A stretch of DNA of 64,000 bases from contig CBDCTH010000012.1 in the NCBI GenBank assembly GCA_965222155.1, positions 3,264,001 to 3,328,000 of the forward strand, given 5' to 3'. This DNA is from Gammaproteobacteria bacterium (GTDB lineage: Bacteria > Pseudomonadota > Gammaproteobacteria > Eutrophobiales > Eutrophobiaceae). Below the pieces are notes generated by a model. It did not search any database, had not been told where the DNA came from, and was given only the letters and a program-made list of their open reading frames with translations. Below are positions 43,764 to 58,925 of this stretch, piece by piece (the first letter of the stretch is position 1; every line of letters starts with the position of its first letter). The position numbers were made by a program, and so were the translations under genes.

Positions 43764-44543
43764 TTACTGGGAAAGTCGGCGGGCCAGGGACTTCAACTTG
43801 GTAATTCGTTCAATCGAAGACGGGTGTGAACCGGAAAACCCTCCGGACAGGTGTTTGGTTTTTTTGAATACCAGTTCCTGCAGACGCACCGCCCCATTAG
43901 GGTCGTAACCGGCTTCAACCGCCCAGATTGCGCCCAGGTAGTCTGCCTCACGTTCATTGTCACGACTGTATTTGGTGTTGGATGCTGTCATTATGTCGGT
44001 TCTGCGCCTGGTCTTATTATCTTCGCCGTGATTTAACTTAAGATGGCCCAGTTCATGACCGATCAGGGCGGCGGCCATGTGTACGTCCAGACCCAGTAAA
44101 TCGAGCATGCCGAAATTGATGCCTACTATGTTGATTTCTACGGCGTTTTCTTCATCGATCGGTTTTGTATCCTTGATAGCTTTTCCCTGCAGGCTTGTTT
44201 CTTCACTGCCTGTTTCGGCTTCACCCTCAACGCCGGCATCTACCGGCACCAGTTCAGCCATGCCCTTGGTGGCAAAGGCATTGGGTGTTTCGCCATTAGT
44301 AATGATCAGTTCCGACCTGAGTTCCGAGACTTCCTCGATGGCCTGCATTACCGAATAAAGATAGATCATCTGCTTTGCGTCTATCCTCTTCAGCAGCCTG
44401 TTTTTATTATCACGTAACTCGACGGTCTCGGCATTTGTCCGGGCGAGGTCTTCAATCTTCCAGGTGTAACTGAACGGCGCGGCAAGGCCGTGGCTTGAGA
44501 TTAGTAGCACCAGACAGGCGCTCAGGACAGTCTGTTTAATCAT
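43764..44543 (-). CDS. Exported M48-family metallopeptidase
   Basis: Signal peptide, PNAFA, IGHELGH, YSRDNEREAD, AGYDP, SHPSSIERI. Confidence 0.88.
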   Translation of the reverse strand: MIKQTVLSACLVLLISSHGLAAPFSYTWKIEDLARTNAETVELRDNKNRLLKRIDAKQMIYLYSVMQAIEEVSELRSELIITNGETPNAFATKGMAELVPVDAGVEGEAETGSEETSLQGKAIKDTKPIDEENAVEINIVGINFGMLDLLGLDVHMAAALIGHELGHLKLNHGEDNKTRRRTDIMTASNTKYSRDNEREADYLGAIWAVEAGYDPNGAVRLQELVFKKTKHLSGGFSGSHPSSIERITKLKSLARRLSQ

Positions 44544-45002
44544 GAATGTTATTTCCCATTGCCAGAAAACCGGTAAACCGACCACCCGTACACATCAATC
44601 TTGACTTTGGATTGGAGAGTAATTTAATTGTATGATCAAATTCAGCAGTAGGTAATTTCGACAGGCTTGCTACCAGCCTATTTTGATGTAACTGGGTAAC
44701 ATAACGTTCTACACGCTTTCTCTGAAGTTTCCGTAGTTGGATTTTTCACAATACATGGTTTTTTCTGCTTAAACACGTAAAAAAACATATTTTAGAATGT
44801 ATTATAGAGAATCATAGCGGTACTGCCCCTGAGGGGCAAATTACAATGAATTAGCCGAAGATATTGTCACAGAACCGCCTATACCCTATTATTACCTGAT
44901 CGGGTGCGGGAACATTTAGCACTGATCCCTATCTAACTTTAACGTGGTATACGCAGTGGATGTTTGAACTATAATTTACTAATCGGGTACGGGGATGAAC
45001 TT

Positions 45003-45887
45003 ATGAATTTCGCTAATGTTGTGGGTGGAGCGCTACGATTCTCAGTCATGATTTCCGTGATGGCGCTTGTCACGGCCTGCAATACGACACCTGCCGTTCG
45101 ATCGTCAGGGGCTCCAGGCTCACCAGGGGCTCCAGGCTCACCAGGCCCATCTGGTTCGCCGGGTTCATCGGGACCTTCCGTTCAGGTAGGGGTATCGGGT
45201 ATGCCGCAAGTGCCGGGGTTACCGGGTCAGCCCACGGCCGGCTCAGGGGGAACACCGGATACTCCCGTCCCCGGCAGGATCTCAATACCCGCTACGCAAA
45301 CCGGCGAGAGTAATTTACCGAACGGGTCAGGATCTACTGCCGAAATGGGACGAGAAAAGACCGATGATGAAATCCTCGCCGAAGCTTTGCAGGAACTCAG
45401 GAAAAGGCGTGAGCCGGGGCAACAGGGCGCAGGCGCTGCCGGGCAAATGCCCCGGGCCGGCGCAGGCGATTCGGCAAAGACTGATACAGAGAAGAAACAG
45501 GCTCTCGGCAATGAACTGGAAGAGGGCTTTTCAGAATTTGACAGCCTGATGCTGAGTGAACAACAGGCCATTAATGAACAAGCCAACCAGGAAGGGTACG
45601 GTGGTTTTCTCGAAGGCGATGATTTTCCCGGAGAGAGCGACCCTGCACAGGGCCTTGGGGAGGAGCCATTGCAGACGGCAATGGTCGACTCTGACCCTGT
45701 GTCTATTAAGGGCGAGGGGAATATCCCGACCAGAAGCCACAGCCAGGTTCCTCCTGATCTTGTTGACGCCAAGGGAGACGATATCATCGCCCGTCAACTG
45801 CGTGAGGCCGCCATGAAAGAACAGGACCCCGAGTTAAGGGATAAACTCTGGGATGAATATCGTAAATACAAGCGAGATTTAAGATGA
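45003..45887 (+). CDS. Gly/Pro/Ser-rich lipoprotein, first gene of the envelope cluster
   Basis: Lipobox LVTAC, GAPGSP repeats, helical C-terminus DDIIARQLREAA..E.DPELRDKLWDEY. Confidence 0.7.
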   Translation: MNFANVVGGALRFSVMISVMALVTACNTTPAVRSSGAPGSPGAPGSPGPSGSPGSSGPSVQVGVSGMPQVPGLPGQPTAGSGGTPDTPVPGRISIPATQTGESNLPNGSGSTAEMGREKTDDEILAEALQELRKRREPGQQGAGAAGQMPRAGAGDSAKTDTEKKQALGNELEEGFSEFDSLMLSEQQAINEQANQEGYGGFLEGDDFPGESDPAQGLGEEPLQTAMVDSDPVSIKGEGNIPTRSHSQVPPDLVDAKGDDIIARQLREAAMKEQDPELRDKLWDEYRKYKRDLR

Positions 45888-47077
45888 AATCAAGTCATGT
45901 AAAGCTGGTTACAGCAGTTGTTTCACTGTGTTTCAGCCTGGTCGGCTGTAACACAACCACGGTAAAGTCGGCCAGTTATGAGAAGGTGGTGCTGGAATCG
46001 GAAGTAACACCGGAAGAATTACTGCTGGACGTGGGAGTTGGTATTTTCAATCCCGGAACTGATGCCTTAAGTGTAGAGGAAGAAGGTGTGTTTCCTAAAA
46101 TACGCGAGGCTGAGGCGCGTTTTATGCCGTACAAGCTGATGGAAACCCTGCAGCATACGGGTAACTGGGGTGTGGTGCGGTTAATCCCGGACCGGTTAAG
46201 CGAAATGGACGTGTGGGTGGATGGTGAAATCCTGAAATCGGACGGTGAAAACCTCTGGTTGCAGGCAACGGTGGAAGACTCTACGGGAAAACGCTGGTTC
46301 AGCAAAAAGTATACGGGATTGGCCGGCAAGTACTCGTATGATGACACTACAGCAAACCGCAGTGAACCGTTCCAGAAGATCTATAACCAGATCGCAAACG
46401 ATATGCTGGCTTATCGCAACCAGTTCGATGCCGCTGGAATCAGTAATATACGCACCGTTGCCGAACTGAAGTTCGCCAGGGACTTTTCTCCGGATGTGTT
46501 CCACGATCACCTGGGTGTGGATAAAAAGGGACGTTATTTCGTTAAACGCCTGCCCGCCGCAGGTGATCCGAGTATGCAACAGATCCGTCAGATCCGGGAA
46601 CGTGACTATATATTTGTCGACACGCTGCAACAGTATTATGCCTCGTTTGTCAACCAGATGGAGGACCCGTACCGGGAGTGGCGCGAAGCCTTCTACCTGG
46701 AAAGTCAGGCTTTGAAGGAAGTCAAATCCGAAGCGAACGCCCGGCTGGTCGGTGGCGCCCTGGCGGTGCTGGCCGGGATACTGGCCCAGGGGGTTGACAG
46801 CCGTACTGCACGGACAGCCGGCTGGGTAGGCATAGGCGCCGGCGCTGCCGCGATCCAAAGCGGCCTGCAAAAGCGTGAAGAGGCCAAGATTCACGTGGAA
46901 GCACTGGAGGAAGTTTCCGCTTCCCTCGATTCAGAGATAGAACCCCACTCCATAGACCTGGAGGACCGCACCGTCACTCTTTCCGGTACGGTAAACGAGC
47001 AATACGGTCAATGGCGCCGGATACTGAAAGAAATTCATGCAACGGAAACCGGGTCAGCCACTGATGCCGGCAAATGA
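45884..47077 (+). CDS. Uncharacterised lipoprotein with a glycine-zipper-like hydrophobic hairpin
   Basis: Lipobox LVGC; segment LVGGALAVLAGILAQG..AGWVGIGAGAAAI; overlaps both neighbours by 4 bp. Confidence 0.75.
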   Translation: MKSSHVKLVTAVVSLCFSLVGCNTTTVKSASYEKVVLESEVTPEELLLDVGVGIFNPGTDALSVEEEGVFPKIREAEARFMPYKLMETLQHTGNWGVVRLIPDRLSEMDVWVDGEILKSDGENLWLQATVEDSTGKRWFSKKYTGLAGKYSYDDTTANRSEPFQKIYNQIANDMLAYRNQFDAAGISNIRTVAELKFARDFSPDVFHDHLGVDKKGRYFVKRLPAAGDPSMQQIRQIRERDYIFVDTLQQYYASFVNQMEDPYREWREAFYLESQALKEVKSEANARLVGGALAVLAGILAQGVDSRTARTAGWVGIGAGAAAIQSGLQKREEAKIHVEALEEVSASLDSEIEPHSIDLEDRTVTLSGTVNEQYGQWRRILKEIHATETGSATDAGK

Positions 47078-48639
47078 CGGATAGCAAGGATTCCGGTTTT
47101 GTTCCCATCAAGCCGGTGGCTGTCGACCTGACTGCCGCCGCAACACCGCAACAGCAAAAAAGCAGGCGCTTCGGCAAACAGCCTTTATTATGGCTGGGAG
47201 CCGGCGCGGCGCTGTTGATTGCAATCAGCGTTATTTTCCTGCTTCCCCATTGGGTGGAGAAGCCTGTCATGGAGCCCGGCAATGCGATCAGCCTGACCCA
47301 TCCTGATGAGTCCGGTCAGGGAATTTCCCCTGGGAGTGCGCCACAAGTGGCAGGGGGTACGTCTCCGACGGGTGATGCTCCGTGGGGAAAAGCGCAACAA
47401 TTCTCTCAGCGTAAAGAGAGCCAGGAAATACTGGGGCAGTTGCTGGAAGCACAGAAAATTCTGCAGGAAAGGGGCGTGACCGTGTGGGGCAAGAAGGAAT
47501 ATGCGCGGGCGATAGAACAGGCCAAGTCGGGTGATGCAGAATACAGCCGGCAAAATTTCTCCCAGGCCCATGACCATTATGCGCGGGCACTGGATATTTT
47601 TACCGGGCTGCTGCAAGGCATGGAAGAGTTGTTTACCGCAACGATGGAAGCCGGCGATATTGCATTATCTGCAGGTGATGTCGCTGCGGCCCGTGAGGCT
47701 TTCAGCATCGCCCTCGCCATTGATCCTATTGACCGGACCGCTCTGCTGGGGATGGAACGAGCCGGGACCCTGACTGAAGTCATAGCCCTGGTTGACAGGG
47801 GAGATGTGTTGTTGCGCGCTGGAAAAGCCGAACAGGCCAAAGCACTGTATCAGCAGGCGCTGGCGCTTGATGGCTACTCGGACCGGGCAAGACAACAGGT
47901 GCAGTTGGCTGCAGACAGAATCAACGAGAACGCATTCAACCTTGCCATGTCTTCCGGCTTCCGGTTGCTTGAACAGGGGAGCTATGCGCAGGCGCAGGAT
48001 GCGTTTTCCAGGGCGCTGAAGATAAAACCCCGGTCGCGTGATGCGCGCAGCGGGCTCGACCAGGCGCAACATCGTATAACCGCTGGAAAAATCAACGCGT
48101 TACTGAAACAGGCCGAAACAGCAGAGCAGAATGAAGACTGGCAGGAGGCCGTATCCGGCTATGACGCTGCCCTGAAACTGGACAACAACCTGGGCAATGC
48201 GCGGGAAGGCAAACGACGAGCAACCCTGCGCAGCGAAATACACAATAAGCTGGAGCAGGTACTAGCCCGGCCTGAGCGGCTGTTTGATCGAAACGCGTTT
48301 AACGAGATCGTCAGTTTCCGTGACAAAATTCAGGCGCTCTCCGAACCCGGGCCGGTGCTGACCGGGCAGTTGGCAAAACTCAACCAGTTACTGAGGTTGG
48401 CCGATACGCCCGTTACCGTACAGCTCAGGTCCGACAACCTGACTCGGGTTACCCTCTACAAGGTCGGCGAACTCGGTTATTTCACCAGCAAAAGCCTGTC
48501 ATTGCGCCCGGGCTACTACGTGGCGGTCGGACATCGTGACGGCTACCGTGACGTGCGCGTTGAATTTTTTGTTGGCCCGGACCAGGCTATGGAACCCGTC
48601 ATTGTCAGCAGTGATGAAAAGATAGCCCTGGGACGTTAA
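47074..48639 (+). CDS. Single-pass membrane TPR-repeat protein with a C-terminal beta domain
   Basis: TM LLWLGAGAALLIAISVIFLLP; TPR-like helices (AFSIALAIDP, LYQQALALD, AFSRALKIKP); PEGA-like tail LRPGYYVAVGHRDGYRD. Confidence 0.75.
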   Translation: MTDSKDSGFVPIKPVAVDLTAAATPQQQKSRRFGKQPLLWLGAGAALLIAISVIFLLPHWVEKPVMEPGNAISLTHPDESGQGISPGSAPQVAGGTSPTGDAPWGKAQQFSQRKESQEILGQLLEAQKILQERGVTVWGKKEYARAIEQAKSGDAEYSRQNFSQAHDHYARALDIFTGLLQGMEELFTATMEAGDIALSAGDVAAAREAFSIALAIDPIDRTALLGMERAGTLTEVIALVDRGDVLLRAGKAEQAKALYQQALALDGYSDRARQQVQLAADRINENAFNLAMSSGFRLLEQGSYAQAQDAFSRALKIKPRSRDARSGLDQAQHRITAGKINALLKQAETAEQNEDWQEAVSGYDAALKLDNNLGNAREGKRRATLRSEIHNKLEQVLARPERLFDRNAFNEIVSFRDKIQALSEPGPVLTGQLAKLNQLLRLADTPVTVQLRSDNLTRVTLYKVGELGYFTSKSLSLRPGYYVAVGHRDGYRDVRVEFFVGPDQAMEPVIVSSDEKIALGR

Positions 48640-48705
48640 CTCGGATGATCACGGCCACAGAGCCTGCCCCTGCACGTCGTAAGCAGGGGGGCACAGACAA
48701 AAACG

Positions 48706-50787
48706 ATGGATGAGAGGACAAAGAATCCGGTAACAAACTCCCGTGCCGGCGCCCGAATTGAAGCGGCGAAGTTTGAACCGCTGAGGTCTGAAAGGACCAC
48801 CTGGACTGTTGCGCTTAATGCGCGGTTTTGCCTGATTATTGTTCTGCTTGCAGTCGGCGTGTTCAGTGCCTGGTTTATGTTGACCGCCAAAGCGGTATAT
48901 ATTGAAACTGAGCCGTTGAATACGAATGTCGATATATCCGGTGCTCTGAAGCTGAAACTGGCCAATCGTTATCTCATACGTCCCGGCACTTATGATCTTG
49001 GTCTGTCTGCACAGGGTTATCGCCCGCTGCAGGAAAGACTCGGTGTCACCGAAGAGGCGGCTCAGCATTATATTTACCGGCTGGAGAAACTGCCTGGACA
49101 CTTACGGATTGACAGCGGCGAAATAACGGGCGCCAAAGTACTTATCGATGGTATGGGCAGAGGAGAAACGCCTGTTACCATCAGGGACCTCCCTCCCGGA
49201 GAATATCTTGTGGAGATCAGGGCGGAGCGACATTTCCCTTTGCGCGCGGAAATTACGCTGGAAGGACTCGATCACGAACAGTCCGTCAGTGCTGAGCTGA
49301 AGCCTGCGTGGGCAAAGATCAGTTTCGCTTCGGAGCCATCTGACGCACAGGTATTCAACGGAGATGAACTGCTCGGCAGGACGCCCCTGACGGCGGAATT
49401 GCTGGAAGGCAAACACAATGTCAGGATTAAGGCAGCAGGCTATAAAGTCTGGCACGATACGATGGCAGTGGTCGCGGGGACACCACAGTCCTTCACCGAT
49501 ATCAAGCTGGAGCCGGCGGATGCCACCTTATTCCTGGTGTCCAAACCGGCACGAGCCAATGCCACCATCAATGGGAATTACCTGGGTTTGACACCGTTGG
49601 AAGTGCCCCTGACGCCGGGACAGACCACTCATGTGCGGTTGTTCAAGCAAGGTTACAAACCAGCGGCCAGGTCCCTGACCGCTGCATCAGGCGAACGGAA
49701 GAAACTGTCTGTCACACTGGAACCGGAACTGGCCTCCGTAGCAGTCAGGGTCGAACCTGAAGATGCATCTGTGTACGTTGACGGAGCACTGGTCGGGATG
49801 GCTGACCGCACCCTGCGGTTATCGACCAGCAAGCATCGTATAGAGATCCGCAAGCAGGGTTACGTGGATTACAAGACCACCCTGACACCGCTTGTGGGGG
49901 TTGAACACGAACTGAACGTGCAACTGAAGACCATCAAGCAGGCAAAACTGGAAACCATCAAACCGGTGATCACGGCGCCGGCCGGACCGGCACTGAAGCT
50001 GTTTTACCCGGGCGCTTTTACCATGGGAGCGTCACGTCGGGAGCCGGGGCGCCGGGCTAATGAGACCATTCGCAATGTCAAGCTGACGCGGCCCTTTTAC
50101 CTGGGATTGAAAGAGGTGACAAACAAGGAATACAGGTTGTTCGACAAGGGCTTTTCATCCGGTATCGTGCGCGGTAACAGTCTTAATGGAGAGACCCAGC
50201 CGGTAGTCAACCTCACGTGGCAACAGGCGGCAAGTTATTGCAACTGGCTGAGCAAACAGGCTTCGTTGAAGCCTTTCTATATTGAAAAAGAGGGCCGGAT
50301 TACAGGTTTTGACAAAACGGCCGACGGCTACCGCCTGCCGACGGAGGCGGAATGGGCCTGGGCGGCGCGGGTCACCAATACAGGTGAGATACTCAAGTTC
50401 CCTTGGGGCGGGGAGTTGCCGCCCGGGAAAAACAGCGGTAATTTTGCCGACCGTAAGGCAGCGGCCTTGTTCGGCAGGATCATCGGCAACTATGATGACG
50501 GTTATGTGGCCAGCGCACCGGTGGGCAGCTTCACGCCTAACGACAAGGGAATATTCGACCTGGGCGGCAACGTCGCGGAATGGGTTAACGACTACTACGA
50601 CGTTGTGATCAACGCCGAGAAAAAAGTTGAGGTTGACCCCGTGGGACCAACAAGCGGAGAGTTCCACGTCATGCGCGGCTCAAGCTGGGCCCACGGCGCC
50701 ATTACCGAGCTGCGCCTGTCGTTCAGGGACTACGGCAGTAAGTCAAGGCAGGATGTGGGCTTCAGAATAGCCCGTTATGCGTATTAA
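48706..50787 (+). CDS. Membrane-anchored multi-PEGA + FGE-sulfatase (SUMF1/PvdO-like) domain protein
   Basis: N-terminal TM; several PEGA repeats (LGRTPL, LGLTPL); FTMGA, KEVTN, PVVNLTW..A..YCNWL, RLPTEAEW, DLGGNVAEW, RGSSW, GFRIAR. Confidence 0.88.
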   Translation: MDERTKNPVTNSRAGARIEAAKFEPLRSERTTWTVALNARFCLIIVLLAVGVFSAWFMLTAKAVYIETEPLNTNVDISGALKLKLANRYLIRPGTYDLGLSAQGYRPLQERLGVTEEAAQHYIYRLEKLPGHLRIDSGEITGAKVLIDGMGRGETPVTIRDLPPGEYLVEIRAERHFPLRAEITLEGLDHEQSVSAELKPAWAKISFASEPSDAQVFNGDELLGRTPLTAELLEGKHNVRIKAAGYKVWHDTMAVVAGTPQSFTDIKLEPADATLFLVSKPARANATINGNYLGLTPLEVPLTPGQTTHVRLFKQGYKPAARSLTAASGERKKLSVTLEPELASVAVRVEPEDASVYVDGALVGMADRTLRLSTSKHRIEIRKQGYVDYKTTLTPLVGVEHELNVQLKTIKQAKLETIKPVITAPAGPALKLFYPGAFTMGASRREPGRRANETIRNVKLTRPFYLGLKEVTNKEYRLFDKGFSSGIVRGNSLNGETQPVVNLTWQQAASYCNWLSKQASLKPFYIEKEGRITGFDKTADGYRLPTEAEWAWAARVTNTGEILKFPWGGELPPGKNSGNFADRKAAALFGRIIGNYDDGYVASAPVGSFTPNDKGIFDLGGNVAEWVNDYYDVVINAEKKVEVDPVGPTSGEFHVMRGSSWAHGAITELRLSFRDYGSKSRQDVGFRIARYAY

Positions 50788-50948
50788 CCCGTATTATCCC
50801 GCATATCACCAAAAGACGCGTTGAGCGTACGTTGGTGCTTTCGGGCACCTGTGTAGAGACTCACGTATTGCCCTTCCACAGCTCGGTTTCGTCCCCTTTT
50901 ATGTGGCAGTGATACAATGTGAAACGTAGAATAATCAGATAAACAGCT

Positions 50949-51719
50949 ATGGGCAGTAAACTCAAGTACACGATGGGAAATCCCGGCGATATCATCAAGC
51001 ACGGTCTACTGGCCGAGTTTGTTGCCTGGTGGGGCGAAGCTCACAACAATCGCATCTTGCGGTTTGCTGACCCGTTTGGTGGCTGTCCGTGGGGTAATAT
51101 TGAAGAACCTGTTAAAAATAGATTGGAGATATTATCAGGAACCATTCTTGCTCAAGCGCAGAATAACGGCGGCAAGGGTAGAAAGTATTTAGGTTCCGGT
51201 CATTTGGTTCAGCAAGCAGCAAAAGATTGCGGGGTTGATGTTTGTGTTCTTGTATCAGATAAGGATGAAGGTGCGCGGTGTGATCTGATAGATTCGGGTT
51301 TGGATCTCATAGAACCCCGCCTGCCGGGTGATGATGGCTATGGAATTCTTGATGCCATGTACCCGCAAAAATATGATTTGATATTATTGGACCCGTACAG
51401 CGATTTTTTATTAAACGAATACCAAAATAAAAACAAGCGGTTTGATCAAATTCAAAATGAAGTAAACAGGAATTCCGAATTGTTTATAGCAGTTTTTGTT
51501 TTGGATATGGATACCAATAATACAATCGGTCGGAATTTTGCCAATTACAAAGAATCCCAATTATCGGATTGGGCTTTTTCCATCCGCTGTCCTAAAATGG
51601 AAAATTCGAAGTACGATTGGGAGATTTTGCTTATCAGCCGACAAATCAAAGAACGTAAATGCAAGCACGTCATCACGAACGTCTGCAAAGTTTTGCCGGG
51701 CAGACTGAAGGTGCATTGA
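50949..51719 (+). CDS. Hypothetical protein with RlmJ-like methyltransferase motifs
   Basis: GNPGDIIKHGLL (cf. RlmJ GNxADVxKH), DPFGG, YLGS, DGY, LILLDPY; AT-rich. Confidence 0.5.
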   Translation: MGSKLKYTMGNPGDIIKHGLLAEFVAWWGEAHNNRILRFADPFGGCPWGNIEEPVKNRLEILSGTILAQAQNNGGKGRKYLGSGHLVQQAAKDCGVDVCVLVSDKDEGARCDLIDSGLDLIEPRLPGDDGYGILDAMYPQKYDLILLDPYSDFLLNEYQNKNKRFDQIQNEVNRNSELFIAVFVLDMDTNNTIGRNFANYKESQLSDWAFSIRCPKMENSKYDWEILLISRQIKERKCKHVITNVCKVLPGRLKVH

Positions 51720-51735
51720 AAACACCATTGGAATT

Positions 51736-52053
51736 ATGGGGCGGATGATTTCGGAAATTGCGAAGCGGGACATAGAGTTGGAGCAGCTTTGTGTCCGTTA
51801 CCATGTACGGCGGCTCGACCTGTTTGGTTCAGCCGTAACCGGTCGGTACAACCCGAAGGAAAGTGACCTGGACTTCGTGGTTGAGTTTCAACCACTGCCT
51901 GCCGGCGAATACGCCGACACCTACTTCGGTTTACTGGAAGCTCTGGAACGACTCTTCGGGCACCCTGTAGACCTGATAATCGGATCGGCCATCAAGAATC
52001 CTTATTTTCTGCAATCGGTTGAAAAAACGAGAACTGCGGTTTATGAGACTTGA
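51736..52053 (+). CDS. Minimal nucleotidyltransferase (MNT) antitoxin
   Basis: LFGSAVTG....SDLDFVVEF, PVDL. Confidence 0.9.
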   Translation: MGRMISEIAKRDIELEQLCVRYHVRRLDLFGSAVTGRYNPKESDLDFVVEFQPLPAGEYADTYFGLLEALERLFGHPVDLIIGSAIKNPYFLQSVEKTRTAVYET

Positions 52054-52381
52054 GGCCAGAAAATACTTGTATGATATTCAGCGCGCCGTCGAATTGCTGA
52101 GGGAATTTACTGCTGGAAAGACACTTTCGGATTATGAAGAAGACGCCATGCTACGTGCAGCAGTTGAACGTCAGTTCGAAATTATCGGCGAAGCTATGGC
52201 ACAACTTGCCAAAGGTGACAAAACAGTAGTTTCCCGGATCAGCAAATACCAACGCATCATCGCGTTTCGCAATATCTTGATTCACGGCTATGCGTACGTG
52301 GATGATAGATTGGTATGGGATGTGGTAGAAACATATTTATCAACTTTAGGCAGCGAAATTGAAGTTTTGTTGGGAGAGTAA
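52043..52381 (+). CDS. HEPN (DUF86) ribonuclease toxin
   Basis: AVERQFEIIGEA, RNILIHGY (R-x4-H), VWDVV. Confidence 0.9.
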   Translation: MRLEARKYLYDIQRAVELLREFTAGKTLSDYEEDAMLRAAVERQFEIIGEAMAQLAKGDKTVVSRISKYQRIIAFRNILIHGYAYVDDRLVWDVVETYLSTLGSEIEVLLGE

Positions 52382-52462
52382 AAGGAGGTAGAGAAGACCA
52401 CAAATTACGTCTCCGAATGGAAAACGCGAAACAGACAAATCTTCAGAAAGGTGTTCAATTTG

Positions 52463-52675
52463 ATGGTTAAAATGATTTTTATTCTTGCGATGTTTGCTGC
52501 TGTTACGGTAGCGGCGCAGCAGCCCCCCGTTGCAGCGGAGCCTGACAGCGTGGAAACGCAGGAGAAAGAGGAAAAGCAGGGCGCGCAGGATGCCGCTGAA
52601 GGCGCTCCGGAAACCTTCGATCCGACTGAGGAGATTTCCGAGGACTATTCCATAGAATTTCCAGTCGATATATAA
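52463..52675 (+). CDS. Small exported acidic protein
   Basis: Signal peptide, low-complexity linker, C-terminal FDPTEEISEDYSIEFPVDI; ends 7 bp before the ExbB-like gene. Confidence 0.65.
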   Translation: MVKMIFILAMFAAVTVAAQQPPVAAEPDSVETQEKEEKQGAQDAAEGAPETFDPTEEISEDYSIEFPVDI

Positions 52676-52682
52676 AGTTATC

Positions 52683-53480
52683 GTGAAATATAACCAGACG
52701 ACAGATTTTTTCTACCAGTTGTTTACGCTGATTGCCGCAATTATCATCGTTCATGCGGCTTATCTCGCCGTGATCCGGCCGAACGCGGAAGCCATCCTGG
52801 AGGAACAGCGCATCCAGCAACAGGCAGGTGAAAACTACGAAGTGAAACGTTCCGTTTTTATCGTGATCAAGGATTTTGAACAGGAAGCCTGTTTTATCCT
52901 GGCCCTCTGGGTCGTTGCCATTATCGGCCTGAAAACCAGGGTAGCGCTGTCCGAAAGACGCCTGCTGAACCGGTCCCTGCTGGAGGTGGCTGCCGGCGCT
53001 GCCATCCTGCCCGAGGATACCCGCCAATATATCAGGCCGTTACAGGCCCTGGCGCAGGATGAACGGGAATACCTGTTGCCGCGTGCCCTGCAGGCGGCAT
53101 TGCAACGATTTGGCTCCACCGCTGATATCCAGGACGTTTCATCAGCCATCCGGGAAATATGTGAGACGCAATCCGACCGGCTGGATTCCGAACTTTCCAT
53201 GATCAGGTACGTTATCTGGGCCATACCCTCCATCGGCTTTATCGGCACGGTGCGCGGTATCGGCGAAGCCCTCGGCCAGGCGCACCGGGCGGTTGAAGGC
53301 GACATCGTAGGGGTGACCGTCAGCCTGGGTGTCGCCTTCAACTCCACCTTCATCGCCCTGATTATCAGTATTTTCATCATGTTCCTGATGCACCAGTTAC
53401 AGCTGATGCAGGAAAGACTGGTGCTGGATACACAGCATTACTGTGACGTAAACCTGCTGCGACACCTGCAGGTCAGGTAG
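52683..53480 (+). CDS. MotA/TolQ/ExbB ion-channel family protein
   Basis: Multiple TMs; IPSIGFIGTVRGI (PxxGxxGTVxG) and LGVAFNSTFIAL. Confidence 0.9.
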   Translation: MKYNQTTDFFYQLFTLIAAIIIVHAAYLAVIRPNAEAILEEQRIQQQAGENYEVKRSVFIVIKDFEQEACFILALWVVAIIGLKTRVALSERRLLNRSLLEVAAGAAILPEDTRQYIRPLQALAQDEREYLLPRALQAALQRFGSTADIQDVSSAIREICETQSDRLDSELSMIRYVIWAIPSIGFIGTVRGIGEALGQAHRAVEGDIVGVTVSLGVAFNSTFIALIISIFIMFLMHQLQLMQERLVLDTQHYCDVNLLRHLQVR

Positions 53481-53611
53481 ATGAGGCAGACAGGAGAGGT
53501 CGGGACGTCATGCCGGACAGGGATTGTCCGGTATCCAGTCACAGAGCCTGCCCCTGCATGCAGTAAGCAGGGGGATGTGAGAGATGCGGGTTCACGTCAT
53601 CGGTGGCATGA

Positions 53612-54931
53612 ATGAGTGACTCTGTTATAGAGCTGAATGACTCTGAGGTGACGATTGTTCAGTCCGGGAACATCGTGGCCAGCAGCCCTGGTATTGCGGT
53701 GCTCAGGCAGGATCGGATCGAACTGGGACAGGCAGCCTTGCAATCCACGCATATCGACCCGAGGAATACCTTCAGCCGCTTCTGGAGCAATCTCAACCAG
53801 GACAGCTTCAAGCAGCGGACGACACTGGCCAGACATAATGCCGACCTGGCCTTCGCCCACCTGTTATCCCTGCACAAGACGGCGGGCGAGGTGGATAAAG
53901 CGGTCTTTGCGGTACCCGGCAGTTTTACCACAGGGCAACTAGCGCTGTTGCTTGGCCTGGTAGAGGCTTCTCCGTTTACCGCAACAGGTCTGGTCGACGC
54001 CGCTGTTGCGGCGACGGCTGCGACGGCCGGCGCAGGCAGGTATAACCACCTGGACATCCACCTGCATCACACCGTCGTCACCTCTCTGGAGGTCTCGGAA
54101 ACAGTGAAGCGTACGGCAGTCAAGGTCATAAATGACGTTGGCCTGCTGGATATTCAAGACAAGTGCGTGAATCATATTGCCGACCTGTTTATTCAGCAAT
54201 CCCGGTTTGATCCGCTGCATCATGCCGCAACGGAACAGGCGCTTTGCAACTGCCTGGCGCAATGCCTGCATGAGTTGGAAAGGGAAGTTGACACGATGGT
54301 TGAGATTGAGTTTGAGAGTACCCGCTACCAGGCCCGGGTAAACAGGGAGCGCCTGGTGGAAGCGCTGCGACCGCTGTACAATAAAATCAGCGCAGTCGTT
54401 GATGCTTCCTGCATCTCTCTGGTAACCAAGCGCCTGGCTAGTCTTCCCGCGTTCACCGATCACCTGGCTGTAGCAAGCAAGAAGGCCGTGGTCCTGGATG
54501 AACGCGCGGTGTTCGTCGGCTGTATGGGCTTTATGCTGGAAGATAAAGCTGCGGATGAAGAGATTTATTTCGTCACCCAACTCAAGGCTGCTGCAGAACC
54601 TGTGATAACCCATGCAGCAACAACGGCAAGCCTGGAACAAAAGCCTGAGCTTGGGGCGACCCACGTCCTGGTGGATGCTAAGGCCCACCCACTCGGACCG
54701 GTTCCGTTATATCTGTCCGCGCAAGGTGTGTTAATGGAGTCCAGGGGGCAGGACTCCTTTTGCTCCCTGATATTGAGGGATTCTTTTGCAAGCCTTGCCC
54801 TTGCAGACGACTCTGTACCTGTTTTTGTCAATGGCCGGGTTGTCACCGGCAACACCGGACTCAATCCGGGTGACGTGATCGGTTTTACCGGCTCGACACA
54901 CGAATTTACCCTTATCAGAGTCCTGACCTGA
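53612..54931 (+). CDS. Hypothetical protein: degenerate Hsp70/actin-like fold plus probable C-terminal FHA-like domain
   Basis: IELNDS..SPGIAV..LGQAA..P.NT, AVFAVPGSF, GLVDAAVAA, HLDI follow the Hsp70 NBD order; tail VFVNG..LNPGDVIGF. Confidence 0.55.
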   Translation: MSDSVIELNDSEVTIVQSGNIVASSPGIAVLRQDRIELGQAALQSTHIDPRNTFSRFWSNLNQDSFKQRTTLARHNADLAFAHLLSLHKTAGEVDKAVFAVPGSFTTGQLALLLGLVEASPFTATGLVDAAVAATAATAGAGRYNHLDIHLHHTVVTSLEVSETVKRTAVKVINDVGLLDIQDKCVNHIADLFIQQSRFDPLHHAATEQALCNCLAQCLHELEREVDTMVEIEFESTRYQARVNRERLVEALRPLYNKISAVVDASCISLVTKRLASLPAFTDHLAVASKKAVVLDERAVFVGCMGFMLEDKAADEEIYFVTQLKAAAEPVITHAATTASLEQKPELGATHVLVDAKAHPLGPVPLYLSAQGVLMESRGQDSFCSLILRDSFASLALADDSVPVFVNGRVVTGNTGLNPGDVIGFTGSTHEFTLIRVLT

Positions 54932-55012
54932 CATGTCGCGCGCGGACAGACATTTCAGAGGCCAGCGGGGACAGATTTGAAATCTGTCCCCTGTCACGGC
55001 GGTAGATGAGAT

Positions 55013-56104
55013 ATGCGGGCTAAGAGACTGCTTACCCCCTTCAGCCTGTCGTTTCTGGACATCATGTCCTGTAGTTTCGGCTCAGTGGTGTTGTTGTTTC
55101 TCATCATCGAGCATAACATTGATACCAACGTCCCCGTCCCCATTCCTATCGATGCCCGCGACCAGACTGCCGAGGTCATGCTGCTGGAGGAGGAGATACT
55201 GGAAGGCAAACGAAATCTCGCGCAGACCCGCAATACCATCTCGGAAATCGATGAGCAACTGGTGGTCGCGCAAGGCCTGGCCCGGCGTATCATGGAAAAA
55301 ATCCGGGAGACCCGGTCCCTGATAGATCAACTGTCAGAGACTACTGATTCCGTCGAACTGGATCGGCTGAAGCTCAATATCAAGAAGCTGGAGGAGCAGA
55401 AACAGCAGTTGCAGGAGGAAATCAAGGAAACAGGGGATGACGCCCGGCGCCTGGTCGGTGACGGGAACCGCGAGTACCTCACGGGCTTGAAACTGGGCGG
55501 CAAGCGAATATTAATCCTGCTGGATATCTCCGGCAGCATGCTGCACGATACCATCGTCAATATCATCCGGTTTCGCAATATGCCGGACGGGAAGAAGCGC
55601 ATCGCGCAAAAATGGGTGCAGACTTTGAAAATGGTGGACTGGCTGACGGCCAAATTTCCCAGGGACAGTCAATATCAAATCTACGTCTTCAATACTGAAA
55701 CGCAATCGGTGCTGCCCGGACTGGACGGAAAATGGCTGGAGATAGGAAACAAGACGGAATTGAATTCGGCTATTGAGGCACTCGGAAGGATTGTGCCGGA
55801 GGGCGGCACCAACCTGGAGAAGGCCTTTGCCGCTATCGGTAAACTGCGGCCGCGGCCTGACAACGTCTACCTGATCACGGACGGTTTGCCCACCCAGGGA
55901 TCCAGAACGATCCGGGGCGCTAAAATTAGTGGCAGACAACGACTCGACCTGTTTACCAGGGCCGTAAAACAGCTTCCGGGCAATGTACCCGTTAATGTGA
56001 TCCTGGCGCCGCTGGAAGGAGACCCGGAAGCGGCCTACGCCTTCTGGCGTCTGGCCATGACTACCGACGGTTCGTTCCTGGTGCCGAGTGAGGACTGGCC
56101 ATGA
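55013..56104 (+). CDS. ExbD/TolR-like TM anchor + coiled coil + von Willebrand A domain protein 1
   Basis: FSLSFLDIMSCSFGSVVLLFLI (intramembrane Asp), heptad region, MIDAS LLDISGSM..GGTN..LITDG. Confidence 0.82.
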   Translation: MRAKRLLTPFSLSFLDIMSCSFGSVVLLFLIIEHNIDTNVPVPIPIDARDQTAEVMLLEEEILEGKRNLAQTRNTISEIDEQLVVAQGLARRIMEKIRETRSLIDQLSETTDSVELDRLKLNIKKLEEQKQQLQEEIKETGDDARRLVGDGNREYLTGLKLGGKRILILLDISGSMLHDTIVNIIRFRNMPDGKKRIAQKWVQTLKMVDWLTAKFPRDSQYQIYVFNTETQSVLPGLDGKWLEIGNKTELNSAIEALGRIVPEGGTNLEKAFAAIGKLRPRPDNVYLITDGLPTQGSRTIRGAKISGRQRLDLFTRAVKQLPGNVPVNVILAPLEGDPEAAYAFWRLAMTTDGSFLVPSEDWP

Positions 56105-57096
56105 GAAAGAAACGGCGGGAAAACGAGGCGTTCAGTATTTCATTCCTGGACGTCATCACCTGCGGTTTCGGTGCAATCATACTGTTGCTCATGATCGCCA
56201 AAACAGGGGACAGTCCCATACTGGAGAGAGCGCTCGAATCCATGCACGGCATCGTGCGGGAATTGCAGGTGCAATTATTTGAAATCCGCGGCGAGGCCAA
56301 AATCCTGGACCGTGAGTTGGACGCCAGGCATGAACAGCGTTCCGAATGGGAGGAGCGGGTTGCGCGACTTGAGGCGGAATTGGCAAAGGAAGAATTACGC
56401 TATAACAGTGTGCGTGACGACTCGGCTGTCGGCGTCATCATCAAGGGGGAATTTGAGCTGGCCCTGCAAAGACTGACGGCAGAAATGAAGCGCCTGTTGT
56501 CACAAAGAGACCCTGTACGGACCGATTTGATAGGCGGCATACCGGTCGACAGTGAATATGTCATTTTTATCATCGACACCTCGGGCAGCATGATCAACTA
56601 TCATTGGGAAAACATGATCAACCAGTTGATTACCACCCTTAACGTCTATCCCCGCCTCAAGGGGATACAGATCATGAGTGACATGGGCGAATACCTGTTT
56701 TCCCAGTACCGGCGCAGCTGGATTCCCGATACGGAAGGGAGGCGCAAAGTCATCATCAGGACCTTGCGTAGCTGGCGCGCCTTCAGTAACAGCAGCCCGG
56801 TGGAAGGCATCACCCAGGCGATTCGCAGCTTTTATGACCCCGGAAAAAAGATCAGTATTTTCGTGTTCGGCGACGAGTTTACCGGCCCTTCAATCAAGGA
56901 AGTCCTGGATACGGTGGAGCGCATCAACCCGAAAGACAAGGATGGGAAAACCCGAGTGCGCATCCATGCGGTCGGTTTTCCTGTTCCCTCCAGTGCAGGT
57001 GAACATTTCCTTTTGACCAACAAACGTTATGCTTCACTCATGCGCGAACTGACCCGCAGCAACGGCGGCGCGTATGTCGGTCTGAATGAAAAATGA
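56101..57096 (+). CDS. ExbD/TolR-like TM anchor + coiled coil + vWA domain protein 2
   Basis: FSISFLDVITCGFGAIILLLMI, heptad region, IIDTSGSM, VFGDE, IHAVGF; overlaps its paralog by 4 bp. Confidence 0.82.
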   Translation: MRKKRRENEAFSISFLDVITCGFGAIILLLMIAKTGDSPILERALESMHGIVRELQVQLFEIRGEAKILDRELDARHEQRSEWEERVARLEAELAKEELRYNSVRDDSAVGVIIKGEFELALQRLTAEMKRLLSQRDPVRTDLIGGIPVDSEYVIFIIDTSGSMINYHWENMINQLITTLNVYPRLKGIQIMSDMGEYLFSQYRRSWIPDTEGRRKVIIRTLRSWRAFSNSSPVEGITQAIRSFYDPGKKISIFVFGDEFTGPSIKEVLDTVERINPKDKDGKTRVRIHAVGFPVPSSAGEHFLLTNKRYASLMRELTRSNGGAYVGLNEK

Positions 57097-57265
57097 ACGC
57101 CATGAATATGTCGGCGGCTCAGCAACTTTTCTTTGTTGAACAGGCTACACCGGGATAGTGGCAAGCGCAACGGTCATAAAGGTTGCCGCCCATCAATACC
57201 CCGCTAAATCGAGGTGAATACAGAAGACAGGGGGGGACAGATTTAAATCTGTCCCCCAGGAGTCC

Positions 57266-57371
57266 CGGGCATACTCTGACCATAAAGGGGCCTATTTCCC
57301 TGGGAGGGAGGGCGTCTCGCCCTCCACGAGGGCAGGATGTCCTCGATCCCGGGAGTTAGCGGGAACTGCTG
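57266..57371. repeat. Uninterrupted copy of the ~105-bp repeat that hosts the MITE at 19003
   Basis: Its reverse complement aligns with 18962-19006 joined to 19348-19408. Confidence 0.8.
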
Positions 57372-57456
57372 CATCAATACAAAGTTTGTGGACTACCACT
57401 CAGTTAAGGTCAATAATACAGGTATATCAAGATACGAAGTACCGGATAGGGCCAGA

Positions 57457-58086
57457 ATGACTAACAGACTCATTTACGCAGTCAGCTTATTGCTAATCCT
57501 GACGGCGTGCGAGCAGTCTATGACCCTCAGGGTGGAAAGTGAAATACCCACCCCGGTGGTAGAACGGATGCCGGTAAAGATCGGTGTATTCTATCAGGAC
57601 GAGTTGCGCAACTACGTCTCAGAGGAAAATTCCGATGAACGACCCAACTGGAAGATCGAGAGCGGTTCCTCCCACGTAGCCTTATTCGAGCAAATTCTTT
57701 CATCAATGTTCCAGGAAGTGACAGAAGTCACCGGTACGACCACTGCTGCAACGGTTGATGCCGTGCTGGCGCCGAGGGTTGCTGAAATGCAATTTGCCCT
57801 GCCGGCGGAAACCAAAACAGATTTTTATGAGGCCTGGGTCAAGTACGATATGGAGCTTTATAACCAGGACGGCAGCCGGATTGCAAACTGGTCGGTGACA
57901 GGGTATGGCAAATCCTCGACCGAATTCATGAAAAGTCGTGATAAAGGACTCAACGCGGCGGTAAACCAGGCCCTGCGGGATGCAGGCGCCAAATTAGCGC
58001 TTGGTTTCCCCAAGGTAGGGGAGATCAGCGTCTGGCTGGAGCAGAAGGACAAAAAATCCGCAGATTACGCAGATGAACGCAGATAA
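57457..58086 (+). CDS. Uncharacterised lipoprotein
   Basis: Lipoprotein signal MTNRLIYAVSLLLILTAC; the last codons come from a repeat. Confidence 0.75.
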   Translation: MTNRLIYAVSLLLILTACEQSMTLRVESEIPTPVVERMPVKIGVFYQDELRNYVSEENSDERPNWKIESGSSHVALFEQILSSMFQEVTEVTGTTTAATVDAVLAPRVAEMQFALPAETKTDFYEAWVKYDMELYNQDGSRIANWSVTGYGKSSTEFMKSRDKGLNAAVNQALRDAGAKLALGFPKVGEISVWLEQKDKKSADYADERR

Positions 58087-58202
58087 GTTATGATATTTTA
58101 TTCAGAGGTACAGCATAAAAACCAATACTGCCATCAGCGGTCACCTCAATCATCTGTGAACCAATAAGTTTTTATCTGCGTTCATCTGCGTAATCTGCGG
58201 AT
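58056..58202. repeat. Perfect 31-bp inverted repeat pair (REPIN-like)
   Basis: ATCCGCAGATTACGCAGATGAACGCAGATAA at 58056-58086 and its reverse complement at 58172-58202. Confidence 0.88.
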
Positions 58203-58250
58203 AAAACATCTATAATCTTCGGATGTAACATAAGCCTTGGTGAGTGGCAT

Positions 58251-58925
58251 GTGAGCATGAATATCCTGTCAGCTATCACGTTGTTAATCGGTCTGTCCCT
58301 GTTGGCGGGGTGCAAGAGCACCACGGTTATAGACGAGTATCGTGAAGCTTCTACAGCGGCGATCGGCCAGGGTGAGGCCATCGTGATACTGGGACGCCGG
58401 CATAGCTCCAGCTACGAGACCGAGGACGATTTCATAAGCTGTGTGGGCAAGTCACTGGGGCAGGGGCAATCCGACATAGACGTGATCCCGGAAAAAGTCT
58501 TCGTTGATGGCATGTATCCTTATTTTGAGACCAGCACCGCGCCCATGGATGTCAGGAACCTGAATAAACTGGTCGAGATCCCCGCTATCGCCGCTAAATT
58601 CAATGAGTTCAACATCCGTTTTTTCGTCTGGATCGACGGCGCCACTGAAAGAACGGATTCATCGGGTTCCGTCTCCTGTGCGGTCGGACCCGGCGGCGGC
58701 GGCTGTTTCGGGTTTGCCTATTGGAAGGATGAAGCCAACTATGAGGCCAGTATATGGGACTTCAAGAAGTTGGCCCTGTCCGGAAAGATCAATGCCGAAA
58801 CCAAAGGCACGTCATACATGCCGGCTGTAATCATTCCAATCCCCATGCTCGCCCGAGTCCAGGAAAACGCCTGTAAATCCCTGGCCAACCAGATCAGGAT
58901 ATTCTTCTCGCAACAACCGGGTTAA
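58251..58925 (+). CDS. Uncharacterised lipoprotein
   Basis: Lipobox LLAGC; paired cysteines including SCAVGPGGGGCFG. Confidence 0.75.
   Translation: MSMNILSAITLLIGLSLLAGCKSTTVIDEYREASTAAIGQGEAIVILGRRHSSSYETEDDFISCVGKSLGQGQSDIDVIPEKVFVDGMYPYFETSTAPMDVRNLNKLVEIPAIAAKFNEFNIRFFVWIDGATERTDSSGSVSCAVGPGGGGCFGFAYWKDEANYEASIWDFKKLALSGKINAETKGTSYMPAVIIPIPMLARVQENACKSLANQIRIFFSQQPG

Follow-up and report, generated by a model that had tools for sequence, protein, structure and literature searches.

A conserved proteobacterial gene cluster probably encoding a TolQ-like, TPH-vWA-type 5:2 motor within an envelope complex

Motors of the MotA/ExbB type, with a 5:2 architecture, have five or six understood uses: flagella, Ton, Tol, gliding and the type IX secretion system (T9SS), and Zorya, the last being a precedent for such a motor serving in defence. 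A gene cluster at positions 45003-58925 (+) of a 64,000-nucleotide stretch of gammaproteobacterial DNA (hereafter the window; Eutrophobiaceae, assembly GCA_965222155.1, contig CBDCTH010000012.1, positions 3,264,001 to 3,328,000) was compared here with the closest described systems. On balance, the cluster probably encodes an ion-driven motor of the inner membrane with 5:2 architecture, a 'TolQ-like plus TPH-vWA' motor (trans-pore helix and von Willebrand factor A domain), placed within a conserved envelope complex. The evidence comes only from the genes present and their synteny, from residue conservation and from homology of domains.

A motor core of this kind has already been predicted computationally (Mol Biol Evol 2025;42:msaf138; PMC12204202). 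The parts of that paper used here describe a tolQ-like gene with paired heterologous 'TPH-vWA' genes and without tolR/exbD, a trans-pore helix bearing a proton-binding Asp and placed inside the pentamer by an AlphaFold 3 model, a seed locus in Idiomarina, and a range 'predominantly throughout Proteobacteria and Verrucomicrobia', the function being given as unknown. The window locus, likewise in a proteobacterial host, resembles this motor in its channel gene (g08; gene handles as in Table 1), which stands without tolR, exbD or motB beside it, in the two neighbouring genes for transmembrane (TM)-tethered vWA proteins (g10 and g11), and in the conserved helix Asp of both, no SHLS motif being found in either sequence. 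The ring of channel Thr of the published motor may have its counterpart in the conserved Thr of TM2 and TM3 of g08. PEGA, sulfatase or FHA (forkhead-associated) partners are not mentioned in the text and one supplementary file of that paper, and lipoproteins, an exported peptide and an M48 protease are absent from the text of its section 8 (the supplement was not searched for these). The full-text literature search returned no other treatment, functional description or experiment on such a cluster. An earlier note, made from the DNA letters alone, had known of no functional description; this holds for the function and the accessory partners in the literature searched, while the motor core proved to be in print. 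A study of conflict systems (PMC7159879, eLife 2020) has domain names in common with the cluster but is without MotA, TolQ and ExbD, and was set aside as a different system.

Other trans-envelope systems share parts of this equipment. As in ExbB-ExbD-TonB and TolQ-TolR-TolA, a PF01618 channel is accompanied by an Asp-bearing single helix expected in the pore, and a TonB_C-domain neighbour occurs in 43 of 81 sources (80 genome loci and the window, see below). Unlike those systems, the cluster has neither an ExbD/TolR periplasmic domain (no PF02472 match) nor a membrane-anchored TonB or TolA, and its own predicted axle bears a coiled coil and vWA heads. With PorLM/GldLM and PorK/GldK of the T9SS, it has in common a 5:2-type motor with a dimeric axle reaching far into the periplasm, as predicted here, and beside it a tetratricopeptide repeat (TPR) protein and an FGE-fold protein without catalytic function. 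However, the FGE-fold protein g04 is anchored in the inner membrane through a TM helix and carries PEGA repeats, whereas PorK is an outer-membrane lipoprotein; its score against NCBIfam GldK (TIGR03525; 1.6e-33, 116.6 bits) falls far under the cut-off of 350, and no GldL, GldM or GldN match was obtained on cluster proteins, in line with the absence of T9SS core genes read from the sequence earlier. In the H1 type VI secretion system (T6SS) of Pseudomonas, TagR belongs to the FGE-sulfatase superfamily; it is reported to bind the lipoprotein TagQ and, according to a model, also the periplasmic part of PpkA, a protein with Fha1 as its single target (PMC13713981). This periplasmic part of PpkA is reported to be a vWA domain (PMC3224232). 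TagQ-TagR-PpkA-Fha1 and the cluster share a lipoprotein, an FGE-fold protein, a vWA domain in the periplasm and an FHA or FHA-like domain in the cytoplasm, and a Hanks-type kinase is also found in five related loci; this sensor is the nearest precedent for the FHA/kinase arrangement. It differs in that the window lacks a kinase, its vWA domains lie on motor subunits and not on a kinase, and no T6SS is linked. ZorAB of Zorya also pairs a MotA-like channel with an unusual partner, but no PADLOC Zor match and no effector genes were found in the cluster, and its inheritance appeared vertical.

The scans (open reading frame (ORF) reading and searches against Pfam, NCBIfam and PADLOC) covered the proteins of the window cluster, where 14 ORFs were read between 44964 and 58925 (+), all in one direction and 11 of them conserved. 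Four-base stop/start overlaps were found at the g01/g02, g02/g03 and g10/g11 junctions. A profile of g09 homologs retrieved relatives in 241 species genomes. The 80 best loci, each with flanks of 10 kb, were retained, and gene order was read by tblastn with the window proteins. The cluster genes kept the same order and direction across these 80 loci. Presence was complete for g09 (80) and nearly so for g08 (78) and for g04, g10 and g11 (77 each), followed by g03 and g12 (70 each), g13 (69), g02 (67) and g01 (62), and absences mostly fell at contig ends. A metagenome scan with a g11 alignment gave 562 confirmed relatives, of which the best 80 were kept; among the 26 loci of at least 14 kb, g10 and g11 were present in 26, g04 and g08 in 25, g02, g03 and g09 in 23, g01 in 21, g12 in 17, g13 in 16, an M48 peptidase gene in 12 and a TPR-TonB_C gene in eight. 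The gS gene was detected in just seven of the 26 by tblastn, for which the peptide is too short and of too low complexity. The earlier note had listed about 11 co-directional genes of these classes at 45003-58925, several with overlapping stop and start codons, and had taken them for one system. ORF and domain calls recovered the genes and located the overlaps at the three junctions above, and co-occurrence in the same order across the 80 genome and 26 metagenome loci bore out a single conserved system; three inserted genes at 50949-52381 (g05, MntA, HepT) had escaped that list.

The motor core was read from g08, g10 and g11. The g08 motifs in TM2 and TM3, with one Thr in each, were at least 95% conserved in 76 orthologs. 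g10 and g11 are paralogs over their full length, TM helix, stalk and vWA domain included (hhalign 99.4%, E 7e-22). The Asp of their helix motif (..SFLD..) was kept at 95% or more in 79 g10 and 70 g11 orthologs; in g10, Asp16 occurred in at least 90% of the rows of a 21-row alignment, in which the Asp and both Ser of the metal-ion-dependent adhesion site (MIDAS, DxSxS) were invariant, and in g11, Asp17 and the DTSGSM motif were kept in 70 orthologs, DxSxS being invariant in its own 21-row alignment. Three Pfam families (VWA_3, VWA_2 and VWA) matched g10. The stretch between helix and vWA (g10 residues 18-172) gave coiled-coil-type matches only (UPF0242, CENP-F, LmuB, JetC).

No ExbD or MotB match was obtained on any cluster protein in Pfam or NCBIfam. 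The window genome contains eight PF01618 matches and three canonical ExbD genes (PF02472), all three outside the cluster, which upheld the earlier reading of an ExbB-like channel without a canonical ExbD partner. Since each of these ExbD genes adjoins a different channel gene elsewhere in the genome, g08 is an extra channel paralog without an ExbD partner. Its NCBIfam exbB2 and tolQ scores were far under the cut-offs, and it is presumed to form the pentameric part of a 5:2 motor. The invariant Asp in the N-terminal helix agrees with the claim that the two vWA proteins are ExbD-like; because an hhalign comparison of the first 50 residues of g10 and g11 with two canonical ExbD proteins of the same genome was uninformative (E 0.09 and 0.35), this likeness rests on the motif and on PMC12204202. 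A complex prediction for the g10 vWA, the g11 vWA and the g04 FGE domain scored 0.01 against a mark of 0.32, a result that tells neither way.

The frame of the predicted complex would be provided by g03 and g04, which have similar topologies. g03 consists of a cytoplasmic tail of ~37 residues, one TM helix, a periplasmic TPR array and a C-terminal beta domain, and g04 of a cytoplasmic tail of ~40 residues, one TM helix, PEGA repeats and an FGE-fold domain. This domain matched true FGE (1.8e-19) and PorK chains (7.9e-19) about equally. Aligned to FGE chains, the catalytic Cys pair (C-x4-C) is replaced by Ala and Ile in g04, so the domain is a non-catalytic binding fold and not an enzyme, like that of PorK/GldK.

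The gS family, encoding a small exported acidic peptide, was found in 72 of the 81 sources when all ORFs of 70 aa or longer in the 80 loci and the window were clustered all against all, although that ORF cluster includes some overlapping-frame ORFs. True members end in FP[VIE]D[IM], the window peptide ending in ..EEISEDYSIEFPVDI, and their alignment showed invariant D65, F70, P71 and D73 (pattern ..D....FP.D[IM]). Among the lipoproteins, g01 ends in a conserved helical motif (..LWDEYRKYK), distant variants matching it in the C-terminal ~50 residues only. g02 displays a Gly-rich hydrophobic hairpin near residues 288-328 and an alignment-wide invariant Cys22; it had no match in Pfam, NCBIfam or PDB sequences, and its Atlas neighbours were all 'hypothetical'. 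g12 is without counterpart in the minimal variants described below and forms an accessory pair with g13, which carries four further invariant Cys residues besides the lipid-carrying one. PDB profile searches of g12 and g13 returned nothing meaningful.

The cytoplasmic protein g09 belongs to a family of 1807 representative clusters (E <= 0.001). Its C-terminus gave no Pfam FHA match in the window protein. For the C-terminal ~75 residues, a PDB profile search returned FHA chains only (E 0.2-0.5), and one Atlas neighbour cluster is 99% FHA. Pfam FHA matched two of 20 close homologs, weakly, and five of 32 divergent full-length homologs at 1e-11 to 5e-14, the same 32 also giving one YscD-type match and one sub-threshold MreB match. 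An FHA-like C-terminus is thus supported through homologs, in keeping with the second half of the label 'Hsp70-like/FHA' that g09 had been given. The first half is plausible at most: a profile of 140 g09 homologs aligned co-linearly by hhalign with the whole DnaK nucleotide-binding domain (g09 residues 2-314, DnaK 13-385), weakly (P 0.004, probability 7.9%), and the comparison with MreB gave E 0.37. The Hsp70 motifs 'VPAYF' and 'NEPTAAA' line up in g09, with His/Gln in place of the GGG of DnaK; its nucleotide site appears degenerate. Among 8000 candidates, no fused and longer version of g09 turned up, which is weak evidence.

The FHA-like domain appeared to be mobile within the cluster. Some metagenome homologs of g04 start with an extra cytoplasmic domain of ~115 residues, whose profile matched g09 residues 361-432 (hhalign 95.2%, E 2.7e-8); no Pfam FHA match was obtained at E <= 0.01 on the N-terminal extensions of six such homologs. 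A hidden Markov model of this domain was run over 165 loci (the 80 genome loci, metagenome loci and five regions from other lineages) and placed it on g04 in 11, all from metagenomes, with none among the 80 genome loci or the five other-lineage regions. A Ser/Thr kinase domain (Pkinase 1.7e-29 to 3e-48) opens the g03-position protein in five of these 11 loci (L199, L200, L212, L221 and L227), with TPR repeats behind it in four of the five. These kinase-bearing forms measure 653-921 aa, versus a median of 521 aa at that position in the 80 genome loci. As the modules are either present or left off there, the cytoplasmic ends of g03 and g04 are taken as the attachment place for FHA and kinase modules. 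In g09-bearing loci, the g04 tail (48706-48830 in the window) keeps the motif I-x-[PA]-x-x-F-x-P, which is missing from the single minimal-variant row of the alignment, the Mariprofundus form, and we infer that g09 may dock at this motif.

Two further genes were linked to the cluster. M48 homologs were found in 39 of 81 sources by ORF clustering (38 of 80 loci at E <= 1e-3). The gene lies divergently upstream of g01 in the window and its close relatives, directly after g13 and co-directional in many other loci, and between g04 and gS in one locus; since the linkage has withstood rearrangement, the protease is likely to be part of the system, as a candidate accessory component. In the window, the M48 gene adjoins a gene for a 914-aa AddB-like 'probable DNA repair protein' (41018-43762 (-); TIGR03623, 1.1e-249), which is kept in the closest relatives only (six of 80 loci). 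A secreted TPR-TonB_C protein of ~447 aa (Pfam TonB_C 5e-6 to 5e-4) accounts for the TonB_C neighbour mentioned above, its gene lying mostly directly upstream of g01 in the same direction. The window has no such gene at that place, and a 51%-identical copy and two paralogs are found elsewhere in its genome. The statement in the earlier note that no TonB gene is in the cluster is therefore true of the window but leaves aside this neighbour of the 43 sources.

In the window, three co-directional genes (g05, MntA and HepT) split the cluster at the junction between g04 and gS. Their homologs occurred in only one, five and three of the 80 loci, respectively, which points to a lineage-specific insertion, and always at this same junction, which would hence be a recurrent insertion point. 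GC content drops to 0.50 across the insertion, against ~0.55 on either side. MntA/HepT is a type VII toxin-antitoxin pair, a nucleotidyltransferase antitoxin beside a HEPN RNase toxin; both members scored above the Pfam cut-offs, their NCBIfam equivalog scores fell under the cut-off, and the pair matched PADLOC PDC-S09 at 4.2e-33. g05 went unmatched in Pfam, NCBIfam, PADLOC and the PDB sequences; it might belong to the pair as a third member or be a defence gene in its own right.

The range of the cluster was wide and its transmission looked vertical. A g11 match was detected in 81 of 126 genomes of the order of the window genome and in 21 of 22 other genomes of its genus, so the cluster looks passed on vertically rather than spread in an island-like manner. 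In seven of the 81 matching order genomes (G445, G526, G424, G518, G514, G505 and G416), the g11 match contains one in-frame stop, which could reflect sequencing errors, pseudogenes or recoding. Across the phylum, 20 of 401 sampled genomes had a g11 match, and 16 of the 20 fell in one family of another class, Mariprofundaceae according to named homologs. Candidatus Kentrum, an alphaproteobacterial metagenome-assembled genome, Sneathiella marina and Desulforhopalus were other named carriers of g11 homologs, and g11-type proteins numbered 5211 at E <= 1e-10 among 8000 candidates scored. Named carriers of the cluster include Porticoccus litoralis DSM 25064, Elongatibacter sediminis CH-27, Mariprofundus strains and Sneathiella marina.

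Shorter forms define a core. Four of five regions fetched from genomes of other lineages carried g01-g02-g03-g04-g08-g10-g11 without g09, g12 and g13, g01 being undetected in one of the four; the fifth had the full cluster followed by M48. An ORF of 63 aa that immediately precedes the channel gene in L117, a region of the Mariprofundus type, ends in ..ATFPVDI, so that gS was read in one of these four minimal variants. Because the short form recurs and this ORF has the gS ending, the core was taken as eight genes (g01-g04, gS, g08, g10 and g11), and it recurs in Zetaproteobacteria, including Mariprofundus. Among the 26 metagenome loci, intermediate forms had g09 without g12 and g13 (six loci) or neither g09 nor this pair (three loci). 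Downstream of the cluster in L226 (11196-18452), L217 (11269-19097) and L222 (12115-19441), the three metagenome loci in which g04 bears the FHA fusion and g09 is missing, lies a Bat-like operon in the same direction, reading MoxR AAA_3, DUF58, DUF4381, vWA, TPR and BatD in L226; this vWA/TPR envelope system may be functionally linked or a mere neighbour.

The coordinates of the cluster genes and associated features are collected in Table 1. The hairpin listed there spans 26 nt of the 360-nt spacer between g11 and g12; it might terminate or attenuate transcription within the cluster, mark a site of RNA processing or be a repeat element.

Table 1. Genes and other features of the cluster in the window, with related genes elsewhere in the same genome
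Feature	Position	Strand	Remarks
M48 metallopeptidase	43764..44585	-	signal peptide, intact HELGH; Pfam Peptidase_M48 3.7e-13; divergent from g01
g01 lipoprotein	45003-45887	+	lipobox VTAC; long Gly/Pro/acidic low-complexity linker
g02 lipoprotein, 397 aa	45884-47077	+	lipobox LVGC; unnamed family
g03 TM + TPR protein	47074-48639	+	Pfam TPR_2 4.4e-18
g04 TM-PEGA-FGE protein	48706-50787	+	four PEGA stretches 4.2e-50; FGE-sulfatase 2.9e-39
g05, inserted, 256 aa, without signal peptide	50949-51719	+	no library match
MntA, inserted	51736-52053	+	Pfam NTP_transf_2 2.9e-11, 44 bits (above cut-off)
HepT, inserted	52019-52381	+	Pfam HepT-like 5.6e-21, 74.9 bits (above cut-off)
gS exported acidic peptide, 74 aa	52451-52675	+	signal peptide, acidic linker, ends FPVDI
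g08 MotA/ExbB/TolQ-family channel	52683-53480	+	Pfam MotA_ExbB PF01618 7.2e-15
g09 cytoplasmic protein, 439 aa	53612-54931	+	no Pfam match; FHA-like end
g10 Asp-bearing TM helix, coiled coil, vWA	55013-56104	+	VWA_3 27.6 bits vs cut-off 27
g11 paralog of g10, same architecture	56101-57096	+	no direct Pfam match
Hairpin, g11-g12 spacer	57232..57257	.	perfect 11-bp stem
g12 lipoprotein, unnamed family	57457-58086	+	lipobox LTAC
g13 lipoprotein, unnamed family	58251-58925	+	lipobox LAGC
TPR-TonB_C paralogs of window genome	G000:C12:732534-733778 (L082); G000:C4:404857-409564 (L083, L084)

The placing of the motor within an envelope complex is favoured by the kept synteny, the PF01618 match of g08, the conserved Asp and Thr residues, the DxSxS motifs, the paralogy of g10 and g11 and the lack of ExbD, as well as by the agreement with PMC12204202, the non-catalytic FGE domain of g04, the FHA link and the vertical spread. 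In such a complex, g08 would form the channel ring, and g10 and g11 a heterodimeric axle whose N-terminal helices bear the ion-binding Asp; the motor would probably be proton-driven. A coiled-coil stalk of ~110-125 residues would raise the two MIDAS-bearing vWA heads through the periplasm in the direction of cell wall and outer membrane. There, the heads may grip an acidic ligand, which could be the invariant C-terminus of gS, the C-terminal motif of g01 or the PorK-like FGE domain of g04. As ligands of the vWA heads or of the TPR array, the disordered acidic chains with strictly kept ends would be the best candidates, namely gS, presumably free in the periplasm, and g01, presumably lipid-anchored. 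Ion flow would then pull or turn the partners held by g03, g04 and the lipoproteins g01 and g02, with g03 and g04 acting as the inner-membrane frame and g01, g02 and, where present, g12 and g13 as outer-side partners. g09, g12, g13 and the M48 protease would be add-on modules. Cytoplasmic control or read-out could come from the FHA-like domain, which some lineages have beside a Ser/Thr kinase, and the protease may process or clear the gS and g01 chains. The most likely job of the complex is the force-dependent maintenance or monitoring of the outer envelope, and we lean somewhat, on account of the kinase and FHA variants, towards a surveillance or regulated role, one of the tasks (beside surface motility or adhesion and export or uptake) for which the earlier note had supposed a complex across both membranes. 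A bolder version, put forward tentatively and possible rather than probable, makes the cluster a distinct class of 5:2 motor, a force-sensing envelope organ unlike Ton, Tol, Mot, Gld and Zor: its MIDAS-headed axle would grip a dedicated ligand (the FPVDI end of a small secreted peptide or the terminal part of a lipoprotein in the outer membrane), and the TPR and PEGA-FGE scaffold would couple envelope mechanics to an FHA/kinase switch.

Several points weigh against a motor-driven envelope complex. g11 had no direct Pfam vWA match, and the contacts proposed between subunits are conjectural. The fold of the N-terminal ~315 residues of g09, plausibly Hsp70/actin-like, is uncertain. Outer-membrane sorting of the four lipoproteins was predicted solely from the residue after the lipid-carrying Cys, and Pfam and NCBIfam revealed no gene for an outer-membrane barrel, a substrate or an effector in the cluster. 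In the window itself, the insertion breaks the operon in two and might end joint transcription of the halves.

The same set of parts could instead serve mainly as a sensor of envelope damage or state, in the manner of TagQ/TagR-PpkA-Fha1, in which the lipoproteins and the FGE fold would report envelope state to the vWA domains and then to FHA/kinase modules across the inner membrane, the channel being a gate or energiser and not a force generator. A signalling role for these parts is documented in the consulted portions of PMC13713981 and PMC3224232, and both the FHA-like domain on g09 or g04 and the Pkinase-TPR protein at the g03 position in five loci would suit it. We nevertheless consider this sensor unlikely: no kinase or phosphatase was recognised in the window cluster (a scan that did not extend to the 80 genome loci), and the typical g03-position proteins of those loci fall short of the lengths of the kinase-bearing forms. 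The minimal variant of the four other-lineage regions does without any FHA module, the usual phosphothreonine-binding residues of FHA domains are, by eye, not kept in g09, and no output gene such as a regulator or a T6SS is linked, while the strict conservation of the ion-binding Asp speaks for genuine ion flow. An apparatus for secretion or surface motility like PorLM-PorKN or Agl-Glt, with the axle driving a periplasmic or outer-membrane ring that contains the FGE domain, appeared quite improbable. The match of the g04 FGE domain to PorK and GldK speaks for it, as does the setting of a TPR protein and lipoproteins beside a 5:2-type motor, known from T9SS and Glt (in part PMC12204202, in the extracts used). 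Against it stand the GldK score and the inner-membrane anchoring of g04 already noted, the lack of any gene in the cluster that Pfam or NCBIfam would identify as GldL, GldM, GldN, SprA, a barrel or cargo, and the small marine genomes of many carriers.

Two other explanations were judged highly improbable, to the same degree. One takes the two parts of the cluster, g01-g04 and g08-g13, for unrelated modules that are mere neighbours, as their separation by the insertion in the window, at a recurrent insertion point, might suggest; yet the halves stay together in Gammaproteobacteria, Zetaproteobacteria and metagenome loci at 30-45% protein identity, and the FHA-like domain crosses from one half to the other, being found on g09 or on g04. 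The other is anti-phage defence built on the MotA-like channel in the manner of Zorya, for which there is the Zorya precedent itself and an MntA/HepT pair with its PADLOC PDC-S09 match inside the cluster. That pair, however, is found in at most five of 80 loci, and no nuclease or other effector gene is present. PADLOC returned weak coiled-coil matches only (E >= 4e-4) on the 11 conserved proteins; on this result and the vertical inheritance (21 of 22 other genus genomes), the defence reading was rejected.

As an ion-driven motor within an envelope complex, the cluster would add a further and widespread use of 5:2 motors to those already understood. To the published core, the present comparison adds the invariant FPVDI end of gS, a linked M48 protease that changes position, the TPR-TonB_C neighbour, an FHA-like domain carried on g09 or g04, and kinase-TPR fusions. 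The resulting locus map, with its eight-gene core and add-ons, peptide end, linked protease and mobile FHA and kinase modules, gives handles for experiments, and the cultured, named carriers make genetic tests possible.

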